A stretch of DNA of 33,679 nt from a virus (IMGVR_UViG_2541047882_000006), one strand, 5' to 3'; numbered from the stretch's first letter, positions 15,937 to 23,195 are shown. Notes: generated by a model not told the origin, from the sequence alone. A program made the numbers and translations.

Positions 15937-16332
15937 CTAACCTCGCATGTCAAAGCCAGATTTCTGAAAATCTCTGTAGACTTCCGGATTGTTGAAGGCC
16001 GGAAATTTGGCTTTATGAGCTGCGGACTTTATCGCTTCGCAATAGGCTTTATCACCGTTACTGGTAGATATTTTTAACGCCGTGCCATCCTGAGAGAATT
16101 CCATATGCAACCTGCATTTTTTCCCTTTCCAGTTATGCGGCTCATCAAGTTTGGCATTAATTGCAGCTCTGATTCCCCGCGCTTGCGCCCCCCATTCATC
16201 CTGATCATCCCAGCGTCCTGAACTGCAACTACCTGTAGCAGTAGTTTTGTGGCAATCTGAAGGGTGTAAAGGTGTGCATCCCGCAACAAAACCGACCCAA
16301 AAAGTCAACATAACGATTTTCTTTAATCCCAC
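15937..16332 (-). CDS. lipoprotein with TolA domain III-like C-terminal domain (paralog 2, divergent)
   Basis: 131-aa track ORF; signal peptide and lipobox (FVAGC); C-terminal ~80 aa share the two-Cys pattern and the PEVY-x-F motif with the upstream paralog and with TolA domain III. Confidence 0.6.
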   Translation of the reverse strand: MGLKKIVMLTFWVGFVAGCTPLHPSDCHKTTATGSCSSGRWDDQDEWGAQARGIRAAINAKLDEPHNWKGKKCRLHMEFSQDGTALKISTSNGDKAYCEAIKSAAHKAKFPAFNNPEVYRDFQKSGFDMRG

Positions 16333-16482: not shown

Positions 16483-16911
16483 TCAGGGTTTAAAATCCAG
16501 CACCCCATTTTGAAATACTTTATATACTTCCGGCGAAGGGGGGGCAGGTATATCAGCATTCTTTATCGCATTCATCGCTTCACGACATAAATCGAGGTCT
16601 CCACTTTCTCTTTTAACCTCCAGTAGAAGGCCATTCGGGGCCATATGCATTCTCAGTGTACACTCTTTTCCTGAATACTTACTCGCATCCCCGAACTGTT
16701 TTTCGATGGCGCTCTTGATTTGATGGGCATACAGACGGATATCCTCACTAACATCAGAAGTACGTTCAGATGAACTCACATACTGTGTCTCTATTGCTTT
16801 ATCGGAGTAATATGATGTACGGTCATGATAATTTGTCGATACAGCATCAGTGCACCCGATAATAATCCCACTAATAATCAACGTAAGAATTGATGCGCTA
16901 CGAAAACCCAT
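16483..16911 (-). CDS. lipoprotein with TolA domain III-like C-terminal domain (paralog 1)
   Basis: 142-aa track ORF; lipobox IIIGC; C-terminus YAHQIKSAIEKQFGDASKYSGKECTLRMHMAPNGLLLEVKRESGDLDLCREAMNAIKNADIPAPPSPEVYKVFQNGVLDFKP aligns closely with the E. coli TolA C-terminus (...YAGQIKSAIESKFYDASSYAGKTCTLRIKLAPDGMLLDIKPEGGDPALCQAALAAAKLAKIPKPPSQAVYEVFKNAPLDFKP) as I recall it. Confidence 0.7.
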   Translation of the reverse strand: MGFRSASILTLIISGIIIGCTDAVSTNYHDRTSYYSDKAIETQYVSSSERTSDVSEDIRLYAHQIKSAIEKQFGDASKYSGKECTLRMHMAPNGLLLEVKRESGDLDLCREAMNAIKNADIPAPPSPEVYKVFQNGVLDFKP

Positions 16912-17849
16912 TTTTCCTCACATATGTCATATAGTAAAGGATTATATATACCGTTGTTTTGGACGCTCAAACAGCGAATCAGATCAAATAAAACGCACAT
17001 TTGTTAACATTTACACAAAGTCTGCGTGGGATATTCTGAAAGAATATCCATAATGTGGAGAGAATCTATTGAAGTGCATGGTGCCGGGTGCCTCCCGGTG
17101 AACAAAATGTTCGTGATACCTGTCGGCGACAGAAAAGGTTAATGGTATCACCCCACCGCACAGGGGGATTCACCATGCAGGAGTTTTCTTAGCAAACTCA
17201 CTGCGCGCCCGGCAACTCCCAACCACATAAAAATGCGGAGTTTGTGGCATTTATGCATATAACTCGCAGGAATTATCTTAAAAAACTGATGTCGATCCGG
17301 ATTAAAAAGAAGCAGGTCATCATCAGATGACTGGAAAAAAGGAAAACAAAAAATACTCATCATACAGTTTTGATTGCAGGGATGAGCCTGCTATGCACAA
17401 TATGCAGAATATAAGCAAGATAAAAATATGCAGGCATATTATTTCGGATTTTGTTATTAACACAACCTTTTTAATAATCATTTGGCATACAATAAACCAG
17501 CCCAGAAAGAACCGCCTAAACAGGCGGTTGGTCAATACAAAGGATGCTTCGTCTTTATTATAGTAATCTGAGGCGTCGGGTGTCTTGTATCAGACAACAT
17601 ATTGTCCCGCTAAACAGCGAATTACAAACCACCCTGCAATGATCTCTCATCTCATTTTATATGAGTTGACGACATCAGGATAACGCATCATCAGCCCCTG
17701 CCAAGAAATATCAAAACTCCCGCCAGCAATGTGTTATCACAATATTGTAAAAAAAACACAGCACCGAAACTATAACTGGTCTCTGTTATAATTTGGAGCA
17801 GAAAGACCAGTTGCCCAACTAGCAGCATTCTCCCCTGCTTTCCTGACGT

Positions 17850-17876
17850 AAAAAAACCGCATTAAGCGGTTTTTTT
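17850..17876. terminator. bidirectional intrinsic terminator; candidate late terminator tR' downstream of the Q-like gene
   Basis: Perfect inverted repeat AAAAAAACCGC-attaa-GCGGTTTTTTT: GC core stem with an A-run on one side and a T-run on the other, about 80 nt downstream of the Q-like stop codon. Confidence 0.6.
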
Positions 17877-17956
17877 ACGATGTCCATGTCTGCAATCCGC
17901 CTCGCGATACAGCTTTGCGAAGCATAGCAAAATTGAAGCAGTTTATACGTAAGAAA

Positions 17957-18499
17957 TCAAGCCATTTTCTCAGCAAATGATTCACGCATGGGAATATATA
18001 GGGCATACTCAGCAACAGCTAACCAATTAGCAATCCGTTTTTCGCATGTGCTAAAACACCACTCTGGGTGTGCATCATTTAGCAATTCAGCCATTTTGCG
18101 CTTAGTCATCCCCCGCCCTTCATAGCGTTGCCGGAGAATGCAAATCAATCCTGGATGCTCTGCCAGCACCTCACTTATGACTCGATCAATACATAACGCC
18201 TCTGCATCAGTACAATGCGCCAGCCAGCTCTTTTGCTTGCCGTTGATCATCTCTCGCAAAAACGCTTCCAGCTCAGCTTTCTCTATTCCCGCTTTTTTCA
18301 TTCTGCGCAGGGCTTCATTAATGGCTGTTTTCGTCAGTTTTTTGGATGCCAACAACTGATTGAACATATTCCCTGACCTGCCACCGCCAATATACGACCA
18401 GCGCCCCCACATACGTAGTTTTCCCTGAATCCAGACACTTTCCAGCGTGGTGAGGCGAAGGTGTTCTCCGCTTTTTCCTGTATTCGTTGGGTAAATCAT
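17957..18499 (-). CDS. putative late-gene antiterminator (Q-like), assigned mainly by position
   Basis: 180-aa track ORF immediately upstream of a terminator and the lysis cassette, following nin-type genes. No confident sequence match recalled. Confidence 0.4.
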   Translation of the reverse strand: MIYPTNTGKSGEHLRLTTLESVWIQGKLRMWGRWSYIGGGRSGNMFNQLLASKKLTKTAINEALRRMKKAGIEKAELEAFLREMINGKQKSWLAHCTDAEALCIDRVISEVLAEHPGLICILRQRYEGRGMTKRKMAELLNDAHPEWCFSTCEKRIANWLAVAEYALYIPMRESFAEKMA

Positions 18500-19801: not shown

Positions 19802-22066
19802 TTATACGGAAACTGGCACACGAGCAGGCAATGGATAGTGAGCCCAGTTATTAGCATTTAAAGCTCTTACACCATCAGCATAAACTTGTGTGTTTCCATC
19901 TAATGATTTTAAAGTTACTACAATAGTTACAGGTAAAGGCTCCATTAAGGCCGGTTCATTCGCTCTCAACGTTGTTTTAGCCTGAAGAGCCCAGTTACCC
20001 GAAGTAATTCCTTTATTAAATGCCTTGCGATGAATTTTTACTGGTGACCACTTTCCACCATGCTCAATTTGAGCTCTCTCATATCCAGATTGACCGTTTT
20101 CTCCTTCCATAGGCACTTTTCCTTTTATAGTATTATTCTCAATTAAGCCAAAACTTAGCTCTACGTTCGCGCGAACATATTCACTGCCGGCATTAGGGTT
20201 TAGTGGTGGTGCATATGCAGCAGTAATTACAATCTCACCTTTAAATTTTCCATTTTGAATAAGTGCCGATGGTATGGGATAGTTTTCCTTTCTCCACCTC
20301 ACCCCAGGAACCAAGAATGTTTGGAAAATCAGAGTAAACCTATCATCACTATCATATAAGGTCTCAATAACCTCATTAGGAATTCCCGCTCCCAAATAGC
20401 GTCTTTCACTTGGCGAGTAATCAGGAGAAGATAATTGAGCGGAATGAATTAATAATGCTTTAATCAATGATGGTGAAACATTAAAGTCTGAATTAGTGGC
20501 TATTCTCTGCCATGTATGCGCAGCTAAACTTGCCACAATTGGAGCAGCAAAACTAGTACCAAAATTAGAGCAAAGCCTATTATCTGGCCCTACGACCTTT
20601 AAACTGCTTGCTCCTACATTCCAAGGTCTATGAACCCCACCGCCAGCATGGATTATATCTGGCTTTGGAGTAAATACAGGCCCAGGGCCACGACGAGTAT
20701 ATGGTGTCGGTGTTCCAATTTCACTTAAAGCATCATTAGCTTCCATATGAGAAACTGAACCAACTGTTAGTGCTCGGACTGACTCTCCAGGAGAGGAAAT
20801 TAAATCAGCACCTCCAAGCGGATCAGGATTTGGCCATGTACGTATAGGTTCATCTACATAATTACCTGCAGCAACTACAAACAAAATACCAAATTTATCG
20901 CTGAGCCGATCTAACTCCATCGCAAAATCACTAAACATCTGCTCATTACATGGTCCGCCTCCCAAAGACAAATTCCAGACTTTTATATCTGGTCTTTTAT
21001 TTACAGCATCTGCTAGCCTCAGAATTAAATCTGATATATAAGATCCATTTTCATCTAAAGCACAAACATCATGGATTTTAGATTTTGTATCAGGAATCCA
21101 TGGATGATTGTCATTTAAAAAATGAGCGCCTGATATCAATGAAGACACCATAGTCCCATGTTCATAACTCGTATCAGGAGGAATTACGTATGTTTCCCTA
21201 CTCACTACCCAAGGAGTAATTGTTGCCGCGATGGGGCTTACCCCAGTGTCAAATACAGCAACAATGGGTAATTCTTCTGATGGTACGGGAAAGCTATTTG
21301 TTTCAATGCCAACAGAATCACTTACACTAACCGGGAATGCTGAATATTTTGGTTCTGGAATTAACGTTCTTATACCCGGGTAATCAATGAGAATGTCTAA
21401 TATATATCTATCACTTGGGGATAAATCCATTATCCTTAATAAGGGAAGACCACATTTTTGTCTAATTTCATCATATTTAACTCCGTATTGTTCTAATATA
21501 GAAATAACGTTTTCATAGTTGTTGTAAGTTGCATCTTCACCTGTGTACTCAAATAGTCGTACAAGGATGTTTGATGATTCAAACAAACCATCAGTGCCTC
21601 CCGGAACCTTCCTATTCTCATCCCAAGGTTCAATGCGCTCAATCGCGCTTAGATTAGCCAAAATCGCTTTAATATTCCGATTTAAAATGACTGACTCTAA
21701 TACGTCAAAACAGCCGGCATGAGCAGCAACCAACATTTCATCTATTTTGGCATGACCGGCATTTTGCAATCCAGCCTCTTGAGCAATTTTGTTCGGCCTA
21801 TGCGTTTTGGCTATTCCCTGGTCTCTTAATTTGAAAACCAAAGTACCCAAGCTTCCAGGGTACTCTGAAAGTTTGGATTCTAAATAATGTTTACTGGTTG
21901 TTAAATTTCTTACTAGCCCTTGTCTATATTCGGCTGTTACATCAACCAATACCTTTGCCCCACCGCCAGCGTTTACTATTGCACCCAAGTCACTACTGGA
22001 AAAAGGGATTCTTAACGTTGGGTTTGTAACTTTTGCGTTACTAAACTGTGTACCCCTTCTGCTCAT
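19802..22066 (-). CDS. subtilisin-like serine protease (peptidase S8) with large N- and C-terminal extensions; IetS-like
   Basis: 754-aa track ORF; S8 motifs in order D (VAVFDTGVS, ~aa 273), H (YEHGTMVSS, ~303), N (VVAAGNY, ~402), S (GTSFAAPIVASLAAH, ~505); no N-terminal signal peptide; AGGAG ribosome-binding site; start overlaps the upstream ATPase gene by 26 nt. Confidence 0.8.
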   Translation of the reverse strand: MSRRGTQFSNAKVTNPTLRIPFSSSDLGAIVNAGGGAKVLVDVTAEYRQGLVRNLTTSKHYLESKLSEYPGSLGTLVFKLRDQGIAKTHRPNKIAQEAGLQNAGHAKIDEMLVAAHAGCFDVLESVILNRNIKAILANLSAIERIEPWDENRKVPGGTDGLFESSNILVRLFEYTGEDATYNNYENVISILEQYGVKYDEIRQKCGLPLLRIMDLSPSDRYILDILIDYPGIRTLIPEPKYSAFPVSVSDSVGIETNSFPVPSEELPIVAVFDTGVSPIAATITPWVVSRETYVIPPDTSYEHGTMVSSLISGAHFLNDNHPWIPDTKSKIHDVCALDENGSYISDLILRLADAVNKRPDIKVWNLSLGGGPCNEQMFSDFAMELDRLSDKFGILFVVAAGNYVDEPIRTWPNPDPLGGADLISSPGESVRALTVGSVSHMEANDALSEIGTPTPYTRRGPGPVFTPKPDIIHAGGGVHRPWNVGASSLKVVGPDNRLCSNFGTSFAAPIVASLAAHTWQRIATNSDFNVSPSLIKALLIHSAQLSSPDYSPSERRYLGAGIPNEVIETLYDSDDRFTLIFQTFLVPGVRWRKENYPIPSALIQNGKFKGEIVITAAYAPPLNPNAGSEYVRANVELSFGLIENNTIKGKVPMEGENGQSGYERAQIEHGGKWSPVKIHRKAFNKGITSGNWALQAKTTLRANEPALMEPLPVTIVVTLKSLDGNTQVYADGVRALNANNWAHYPLPARVPVSV

Positions 22067-23195
22067 ATGCTCCTGACTCCTTCAGAATGTTTGAAATTAC
22101 TCTTGATGTAAGTTTGTACAAATTAGCAAGAACTCTGATAGAAAATAATTTTTTATCTTTAGAACGTAACCAACGAATTTCATCTTCGTAAGTGCTTAAA
22201 TTTACACCTTCCATAAGCGATTGAGCAAGATACAAACGCCTATACAATTTGTGGTGATTTATCACACTTGCACCTTCAATAACTGCATCCCTACGTGCAT
22301 CCAAGCTCACCTGTTCAATTATTGCTCCGGATAATCCTTCCGATTTTCTTGATAAATCACTTAAATCTAGATCGCTACATATCATATTCTTTAAACGATT
22401 TTTCCAAATTAACTCTCTCTGATGTATGTCAGGCAGAGGCATTGGAATTCTGAAGCTAAATCGCCTCCAGATTGCAGGATCCAGAAGTTGCTCATGGTTA
22501 GTTGAGGCAATAATTACCGTATCCTCTGATGCCGCATCCATATTCTGCAATAGTGAAATGACAACTCGCTGAAGCTCACCTATATCTCTCTCATTACCTC
22601 TTGCTCCAGCTAAAGCATCAAATTCGTCTAAAAAAAGCACTGATGGCCTCTGCATTACATAATCGAAAACCTGTCTAAGATTTTTGCTGGTTTGTCCCAA
22701 TAAACTACTAATCAAAGTATCGCAACGCACTGTAAGAAGTGGAAAATCTAAGCGGGTAGCGATGTACTTAGATAACATAGTCTTACCTGTTCCTGGCTTT
22801 CCATACACGAGCATACGACTCGGCAATGCTGCATCAGCTTTAACAAACTCATCATAACGTTGAACATTAGTGATAAACTCTTCAACACGGGTACTGATTG
22901 CTGCAGGCAGAAAAATCTCTGAACTGTCTAATTTAGGATAACTGACATCAACAGTGTTGAGTCGACTATCAATATCTACCGGTAATGAGCCCAGAGATAT
23001 CCCACCTCCAGCCCTTTGAGCTCCTGCCAACGCCTGGGGAGCTCTAAGCAACCTTTCTCTTATCATTCTGGCTTGCTTGACCTCCCCTTTTTGTTCGAGC
23101 TTATCTGCCAGCAACCCAGCATAATTACTAGCCATCGAAGCATTTGCCTTTGTTGCACCTTCAATGATTTTTAACACTTCTGATAAATAATCCAT
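22041..23195 (-). CDS. AAA+ ATPase; IetA-like
   Basis: 384-aa track ORF; Walker A GKPGTGKT (~aa 132-139), Walker B VLFLDEFD (~185-192), sensor-1 IIASTNH, arginine pair WRRF; ~125-aa N-terminal and ~130-aa C-terminal non-ATPase regions. Confidence 0.8.
   Translation of the reverse strand: MDYLSEVLKIIEGATKANASMASNYAGLLADKLEQKGEVKQARMIRERLLRAPQALAGAQRAGGGISLGSLPVDIDSRLNTVDVSYPKLDSSEIFLPAAISTRVEEFITNVQRYDEFVKADAALPSRMLVYGKPGTGKTMLSKYIATRLDFPLLTVRCDTLISSLLGQTSKNLRQVFDYVMQRPSVLFLDEFDALAGARGNERDIGELQRVVISLLQNMDAASEDTVIIASTNHEQLLDPAIWRRFSFRIPMPLPDIHQRELIWKNRLKNMICSDLDLSDLSRKSEGLSGAIIEQVSLDARRDAVIEGASVINHHKLYRRLYLAQSLMEGVNLSTYEDEIRWLRSKDKKLFSIRVLANLYKLTSRVISNILKESGAYEQKGYTV

Follow-up and report, generated by a model that had tools for sequence, protein, structure and literature searches.

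The 33,679-nucleotide (nt) viral stretch IMGVR_UViG_2541047882_000006, referred to here as the window, contains an unannotated gap of 1 kb (positions 16912-17956, the interval studied) between a Q-like antiterminator gene of the DUF1133 family and a gene for a TolA-like protein. We conclude that this interval is probably a mosaic of four parts, each of a known kind, that makes up the non-coding leader of a lambdoid late operon: a late-control cassette (17960-17847), a leader segment (17830-17209), a gene of the STnc100 family of small RNAs (sRNAs) (17208-17022) and a promoter-like site (16970-16941). All parts are read on the minus strand, as are the Q-like gene, the TolA-like gene and the lysis genes, and "downstream of Q" therefore means falling coordinates. 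The element is an Escherichia coli Rac-type prophage, a label it takes from a full-length match in the window to the RalA antitoxin RNA of the RalR/RalA system (RF02694; 31945-32123, minus strand, 225 bits in Rfam). A RefSeq locus that is 99.9% identical over the interval searched (L001) has trkG and an identical gene order. Among 5426 complete E. coli genomes, 1189 contain the interval, and no RefSeq gene is annotated inside it in the 446 genomes in which at least 80% of it is covered. What was an unannotated gap in those 446 genomes can now be described as a set of defined elements, while current understanding of lambdoid late control is unchanged by these findings.

The cassette begins at the Q stop codon, which is overlapped by the -35 hexamer of a candidate late promoter (TTGATT, 17960-17955); a 17-nt spacer (17954-17938), the candidate Q-binding element, separates it from a putative -10 hexamer (TTCAAT, 17937-17932). 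A second -10-like hexamer, TATGCT, lies 4-7 nt past the promoter -10 and is our candidate for a sigma-dependent pause element. Within the conserved block that would be transcribed first, GCUUCGC (17923-17917) and GCGAGGC (17905-17899) can pair as a possible 5' RNA hairpin, which is present in the minimum-energy fold. The cassette ends in a predicted intrinsic terminator. A perfect 11-base-pair (bp) stem with flanking A- and T-runs had been noticed at 17850-17876 in the original prediction, and this stem, with four G:C and seven A:T pairs, proves to be the core of an inverted repeat that pairs perfectly over 14 bp around a 5-nt loop (17847-17860/17866-17879; inverted-repeat scan). The corresponding RNA folds at -19.7 kcal/mol (z = -7.7), and none of 200 shuffles folds as well. 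A built-in terminator scan reported two weak terminators and missed this one because the A- and T-runs are absorbed into the stem, and the scan was not relied on. With a predicted start near 17923, the short RNA would span 17923-17850, or about 74 nt. Other promoter registers after Q (TAAACT as -10, TTGCTA as -35) were dropped, their upstream partner hexamers being poor or not conserved. The post-Q element was also considered as one of the Pas sRNAs and rejected, since PasB lies among phage structural genes, PasC past the esterase gene and on the other strand, and PasD1 just upstream of a holin-sized gene.

Comparison across Q loci carries the assignment of these elements. Among 80 IMG/VR loci whose Q proteins are 94-100% identical to that of the window, the first ~62 nt after the Q stop codon are nearly invariant, the next 20-30 nt are variable, and a hairpin with a T-run then follows whose stem is lineage-specific (CCGC/GCGG, ACCCGCC/GGCGGGT, AACCACC/GGTGGTT or CCCCGC/GCGGG); the flanks past the terminator are unrelated among lineages. 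A scan of one genome per species gave 51 loci in many Enterobacterales genera, with Q identity down to 31%, and in at least 15 genera the DUF1133 Q gene is succeeded by this layout, with a terminator that varies in sequence but keeps its stem. Thirty non-redundant cassettes were loci selected and anchored by TAnGCT, so that the presence of this hexamer in 30/30 follows from the selection; its variation is confined to the third position. A hairpin with a T-run stands 59-100 nt after TAnGCT in 28 of the 30, and half of them (15/30) carry a promoter of the form TTGAC(T/A)-16-TAnnnT, matching 9-10 of 12 consensus positions and ending 4-7 nt before TAnGCT. When 24 cassettes were folded jointly with RNAalifold, nine terminator pairs were kept, six of them with compensatory changes; at the 5' end only a helix of 4 bp was kept, one pair of which is compensatory. 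A GCTnnGCnAAGCTG motif is likewise kept across genera, after the pause-like hexamer and before the terminator.

In distant phages individual promoters can be read at the Q stop codon. Edwardsiella EPP-1 has TTGACA-16-TAGTAT at the Q stop position and Providencia PSTCR8lys has TTGACT-16-TATAGT, a promoter shared by Proteus; at the orthologous position Serratia has TTGACT-16-TAAATT and Rac-SA53 has TTGATT-17-TATCTT. The -35 hexamer lies at or over the Q stop codon in EPP-1, PSTCR8lys and Rac-SA53, and the Providencia and Edwardsiella promoters are followed, seven bases past the -10, by a second -10-like hexamer, TATGCT or TACGCT. The spacer between -35 and -10 is conserved within lineages. A promoter at the Q stop codon has precedents in the annotated pR' of 933W, which overlaps the Q stop codon, and in Gifsy-1, where TTGACA lies over the AntQ stop codon upstream of IsrK (PMC4825925). 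On this comparative evidence the hairpin at 17850-17876 behaves like a Q-linked late terminator, as the original prediction had suggested in proposing a tR' analogue, and the ~62 near-invariant bases between the Q stop codon and the terminator fit the late promoter and Q-utilisation region that it had named among the possible contents of the interval. The modest novelty here is that Q proteins of the DUF1133 branch have a consistent predicted cassette across the Enterobacterales.

The label of the upstream gene as Q-like is borne out at profile level. Its protein matches PF06530 (Phage_antitermQ) at 26.1 bits against a Pfam cut-off of 26 and belongs to PHROG 753, labelled "anti-termination protein Q-like". 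The single sequence gave a weak match to the phage 21 Q structures (E = 0.27). A DUF1133 profile built from six proteins of E. coli, Klebsiella, Providencia and Edwardsiella phages matched the Q21 structures 6p18/6jnx in the PDB with E = 1.2e-7 over two stretches, an N-terminal WGxW motif and residues 94-177, and hhalign aligned it with the Q proteins of 933W and H-19B at E = 1.4e-4. Because of these matches the DUF1133 Q-like protein is, as judged from profile comparison, a distant member of the Q21 lineage. The family thereby gains a concrete candidate regulatory site, with promoter, pause-like hexamer and terminator, and such a site would permit annotation of DUF1133 as a Q antiterminator relative across the Enterobacterales. 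Two Q copies outside this order, one in a contig labelled as a Candidatus Nanosynbacter metagenome-assembled genome (L098; 149 residues 100% identical to the window's Q protein) and one in a Vagococcus sp. assembly (L104; 58% identical), look like enterobacterial DNA contamination and not true hosts.

At lambda pR' the pause element lies at +1 to +6, and the 4-7 nt spacing of the window-type hexamer resembles this geometry. The window agrees with the lambda and phage 21 cassettes in its succession of Q, candidate promoter, early -10-like element and predicted terminator within ~75 nt, with the late genes on the same strand, and in having, in the DUF1133 protein, a detectable relative of Q21. 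It differs from them in the -10 of the E. coli lineage, TTCAAT, which is without the usual A; moreover, DUF1133 stands outside the three Q families named in the work that defines Q cassettes by promoter, Q-binding element, sigma-dependent pause element and terminator (bioRxiv 10.1101/651190).

The sRNA that the original prediction had listed among the possible contents of the interval is present as an STnc100-family gene, which matches RF02076 with E = 1.9e-17 over model positions 1-206 of 206. STnc100 is a structured RNA of ~190 nt that many lambdoid prophages carry, and it is related to PasD1/PasD2 and the EcOnc sRNAs of pathogenic E. coli. The window copy is a full-length match that passes the gathering score (Table 1), with the long-range helix of STnc100 (GCAUGGUG/CACCAUGC) and its CCGGGAGGCACCCGG hairpin both retained. 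Its position is also that of the family: copies sit in sense orientation, past Q or cargo and ahead of the lysis genes, irrespective of the Q type upstream, and the window copy does the same, here with a DUF1133-type Q and in a Rac-type prophage, unlike the Stx phage copies. The segment 17102-16900 is shared at 100% with mEp460_ev081. At its 3' end the window copy departs from the family, having an AU-rich terminal hairpin without a U-run and a shorter centre. Where the family has its GC-rich terminal hairpin and U-run, the window copy reads GGAUAUUC/GAAUAUCC and then CACGCAG, and the match carries flags for non-standard pairs; the mEp460 copy has the same terminal variant. The first of the two 3' hairpins (17049-17029, GGAUAUUCU/AGAAUAUCC) is AU-rich and has no U-run, and the second (17027-16993, ACGCA...UGCGU), followed by UUUUAUUU, is a possible weak terminator. 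This appears, from the sequence, to be a new STnc100 variant without a canonical terminator, a modest addition that bears on how this widespread prophage RNA works, in trans or within the late leader.

Some points count against the STnc100 part of our account. The central section is shorter and the family terminator with its U-run is missing, so the window STnc100 may be read through or non-functional; further, no STnc100 promoter was identified in a comparison of five copies, an upstream TTGAC motif being found in three of the five with no usable -10 next to it, and the window having TTGGGA. These observations weigh against an independent sRNA and would suit an alternative that we regard as rather unlikely, namely that STnc100 works in cis on the late or TolA-like messenger RNA (mRNA), whether by forming a structured leader, by providing a processing site or by stabilising the message. 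The family is always in sense orientation just upstream of late genes, with any Q type, no promoter of its own is recognised, and without a U-run terminator in the window and mEp460 copies transcription should continue into the TolA-like gene. Against this alternative stand observations on other copies and on relatives. The 11 STnc100 copies of EDL933 are transcribed in lysogens, and one of these enterohaemorrhagic E. coli copies was confirmed by Northern blot as a discrete band (PMC5331693). [quoted passage not shown] RpoD binding at STnc100 promoters has been reported in Salmonella (PMC10794520), and STnc100 occurs in outer-membrane vesicles of Shiga toxin-producing E. coli (PMC12370729).

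Several smaller observations attach to this gene family. STnc100 occurs in outer-membrane vesicles of Shiga toxin-producing E. coli (PMC12370729). A seed apparently shared between PasD (UGUGAG) and the 5' end of the window's STnc100 (AGUGAG) was dropped as coincidence, the PasD seed lying near its 3' end. Antisense to the STnc100 copies of E2348/69 (L004, 7620-7745) and L144 (2511-2651), RefSeq lists a partial pseudogene named "hypothetical protein", probably an artefact of the unannotated RNA gene. In 933W (L085, 3985-4037, minus strand) the anti-sRNA AsxR (RF02703) lies on the opposite strand two bases past the STnc100 3' end; no AsxR counterpart was detected beside the window's copy.

Taken in the order of transcription, the elements suggest the following mechanism. 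A sigma-70 promoter would lie at the Q stop codon; the Q-binding site is probably located in its conserved spacer, and TATGCT, at about +1 to +6, would retain sigma and make RNA polymerase pause. In a lysogen, transcription from this promoter would stop at the terminator and give no more than a short RNA, corresponding to lambda 6S RNA, StxS and IsrK. Once made, Q would load on the paused polymerase and carry it through the 17847-17879 terminator, and the polymerase would then pass the weaker hairpins beyond the terminator to reach the TolA-like, holin and lysozyme genes. The sequence features, the homologies and their conservation are observed; from them we infer the transcription start, the pause, Q loading and read-through, as well as any sRNA activity of the STnc100 copy.

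Short RNAs from promoters of this type include lambda 6S RNA and StxS (PMC7547250), and both StxS and IsrK arise from a promoter at the Q stop codon and end at the late terminator (PMC7547250, PMC4825925), as the window RNA is predicted to do. IsrK, at 77 nt and with a 5' hairpin and a CCGC/GCGG-type terminator, is close to the predicted 74-nt RNA, and the best weak isrK match in Rfam covers exactly 17923-17850. This match scores 21.6 bits against a gathering score of 50, and membership of isrK (RF01394) was rejected on that score, leaving a resemblance of architecture only; AntQ, moreover, is annotated as similar to the Q of phage 82. StxS differs in being cut from a 258-nt transcript. An improbable extension of the scheme would make DUF1133 a fourth Q branch that combines a Q21-like fold with lambda-like pause geometry (TAnGCT at +1 to +6) and in which Q loading depends on nascent RNA as well as DNA. 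It would require, with the same poor prospects, the conserved and partly palindromic initially transcribed block (GCTTCGCnAAGC), which can fold as a 5' RNA hairpin; like StxS and IsrK, the short terminated RNA could have a further function in trans.

Several points count against reading the post-Q segment of the window as a working late promoter and terminator. The window promoter, TTGATT-17-TTCAAT, matches 8 of 12 consensus positions and does not rise above shuffles, its -10 has T in place of the near-essential A at -11, and it is assigned solely by positional homology with stronger orthologues; the whole E. coli/Shigella/Citrobacter group, the window included, has TTCAAT or TTGAAT where other cassettes have TAnnnT. 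TATGCT, which follows TGC, might itself be used as an extended -10, moving the start ~9 nt downstream. Of the terminator's pairs only four are G:C, and the conservation of the 62-nt block could in part be that of a 3' untranslated region (UTR) co-inherited with Q. The prophage is, finally, probably defective and its parts may be decaying, as the loss of a U-run at 17510 and an IS3 insertion in strain M10 indicate.

One alternative takes the hairpin at 17850-17876 as the terminator of the Q operon (early-right) or as a bidirectional insulator, and the 62 nt as the Q 3' UTR, with the late promoter in another place, such as directly upstream of STnc100 or the TolA-like gene. The weak promoter match at the window's Q stop codon speaks for this alternative, the symmetric hairpin with its A7 and T7 flanks could work both ways, and a promoter-like site matching 10/12 positions does exist at 16970-16941. 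The orthologous cassettes are hard to reconcile with it: near-consensus promoters occupy the exact place in Proteus, Providencia, Edwardsiella, Yersinia, Serratia and Xenorhabdus, and a second conserved -10-like hexamer follows each orthologous promoter, for which a plain 3' UTR gives no reason. In E2348/69 the block stands 92 nt from the 3' end of a different Q and is yet intact, and the layout as a whole is the one that defines Q cassettes (bioRxiv 10.1101/651190). We therefore retain the late-control cassette as the preferred reading and consider a Q-operon terminator distinctly unlikely.

Between the cassette and STnc100, the leader segment (~640 nt) occupies the place of tRNA genes or cargo in related prophages. 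Within it lie the inverted repeat at 17774-17812, a T8 run, the hairpin at 17510-17529 and the AT-rich spacer. The "hairpin-rich" character originally ascribed to the interval holds insofar as the inverted repeats described near 17510-17529 and 17771-17815 are real; the second of these (17774-17782/17804-17812, 9 bp with a 21-nt loop) is, however, no more stable than shuffles (z = -0.9). Positions 17830-17480 are 62-69% identical to non-coding segments of three relatives, which in L084 and L070 lie past two tRNA genes and before the holin gene and in L087 lie past a tRNA-Gly gene. The hairpin at 17510-17517/17522-17529 (AACCGCC/GGCGGTT, 8 bp with a 4-nt loop) is followed by T7-8 in these relatives and by CTTTCTGGG in the window, and for this reason we take it, on comparative grounds, to be a terminator that has lost its U-run in the window. 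In E. coli M10 (L086) an IS3-family element is inserted in the leader at the equivalent of ~17686; since it is inserted there, the leader tolerates disruption, at least in a resident prophage. No homologue of 17209-17499 was found outside this prophage type, its context being almost only Rac-type.

A decayed transfer RNA (tRNA) remnant had been among the suggested contents of the interval, and it can be discarded. No canonical tRNA had been recognised by eye, and neither ARAGORN (0 in the whole window) nor Rfam, even with E up to 5, found one in the window; the relatives have intact tRNA pairs between tR' and the block that comes next, and no part of that tRNA segment, that of L084 included, aligns to the window. 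The AT-rich tract without a convincing open reading frame (ORF) likewise stands as described, with a GC minimum of 0.315 at 17300-17499 in the composition profile. Lambdoid phages commonly carry AT-rich morons in the stretch from Q to the lysis genes, and toxin cargo occupies this slot in Rac-SA53, so a hidden small protein gene might be sought in one of the ORFs of 67-78 amino acids that the interval contains, such as a hydrophobic one of 70 amino acids (17323-17535, minus strand) or one of 78 amino acids (17327-17563, plus strand). We rejected such a gene as highly implausible: the four longest ORFs of the interval, among them these two and one of 71 amino acids at 17148-17363 (minus strand), gave no significant Pfam or PHROG match, no large-database protein search having been made; nothing is annotated here in the 446 RefSeq genomes; the alignment gaps with relatives are not multiples of three and break any reading frame; the 70-amino-acid ORF starts with TTG and no Shine-Dalgarno motif precedes the ATG of the 71-amino-acid ORF when read by eye; and chance alone is expected to produce hydrophobic ORFs where DNA is T-rich.

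A comparison of Q-to-lysis intervals shows one order in mEp460, 933W, H-19B, Rac-SA53 and the window: Q, terminator or terminators, optional cargo, STnc100 where present, and lysis genes. The window differs in what it lacks, namely the tRNA genes of mEp460 and 933W, the Shiga toxin genes of 933W and H-19B, and the pertussis-like toxin of Rac-SA53. With its modules of differing origin, the interval probably represents the untranslated 5' portion of the prophage late operon. In Rac-SA53 (L089, 3492-4723) the pertussis-like toxin genes eplBA lie between a Q cassette of the same type and the holin gene; this cargo slot is empty in the window.

Table 1. Coordinates of the elements in and around the interval, and STnc100 copies in other phages and prophages
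Feature	Position	Strand	Basis or description
Q-like antiterminator gene, 180 amino acids	17957-18499	minus	Pfam DUF1133, 356 bits
Candidate late promoter (pR' analogue)	17932-17960	minus	Positional homology with orthologous cassettes
-10-like hexamer TATGCT	17921-17926	minus	Candidate sigma-dependent pause element, ~+1 to +6
Conserved initially transcribed block (predicted)	17895-17923	minus	Near-invariant in 80 IMG/VR loci
Predicted intrinsic terminator (tR' analogue), bidirectional-looking	17847-17879	minus	CGUAAAAAAACCGC-UUAAU-GCGGUUUUUUUACG
Lineage-specific non-coding leader block	17500-17846	minus	62-69% identity to non-coding segments of relatives
AT-rich spacer	17209-17499	minus	Composition profile; no recognisable feature
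STnc100-family sRNA gene (RF02076)	17022-17208	minus	Rfam 86.6 bits, gathering score 47
Two 3' hairpins of the STnc100 copy	16993-17049	minus	Joint fold -18.8 kcal/mol, z = -2.85
Promoter-like site TTGAGC-18-TATAAT	16941-16970	minus	10/12 consensus; 30 nt upstream of the TolA-like start codon
TolA C-terminal-domain gene, first past the interval	16483-16911	minus	Pfam TolA, 82.6 bits; RefSeq "cell envelope integrity protein TolA"
Second TolA-domain gene	15937-16332	minus	Holin and lysozyme genes next
STnc100 copy, 933W	after stxB2		207.7 bits
STnc100 copy, H-19B	after stx1B		178.6 bits
STnc100 copy, mEp460	past two tRNA genes, ahead of the same TolA-like gene		114 bits
STnc100 copy, E2348/69 prophage PP5	upstream of the esterase gene		123.6 bits

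At the far end of the interval, the promoter-like site before the TolA-like gene is weak evidence when taken alone, nine such sites being found in the region against 5.6 expected. Beyond it, the two small TolA C-terminal-domain proteins are encoded in tandem between STnc100 and the holin gene (Pfam 82.6 and 54.6 bits, both PHROG 5772). The same pair is found in mEp460 and DLP12-like prophages, and it may be a moron affecting Tol-dependent uptake. Elsewhere in the window, positions 256-454 on the minus strand give a full-length Rfam match to IS009 (RF02111, 223 bits), a family listed by one cited paper as frequent near PasB sRNA genes. Two ORFs on the minus strand, 19802-22066 (754 amino acids) and 22041-23195 (384 amino acids), match in size and position IteS and IteA of the RefSeq locus L001, which RefSeq labels as an anti-phage peptidase and an ATPase, respectively; if they are IteS and IteA, a defence system lies between the nin-like and replication genes.

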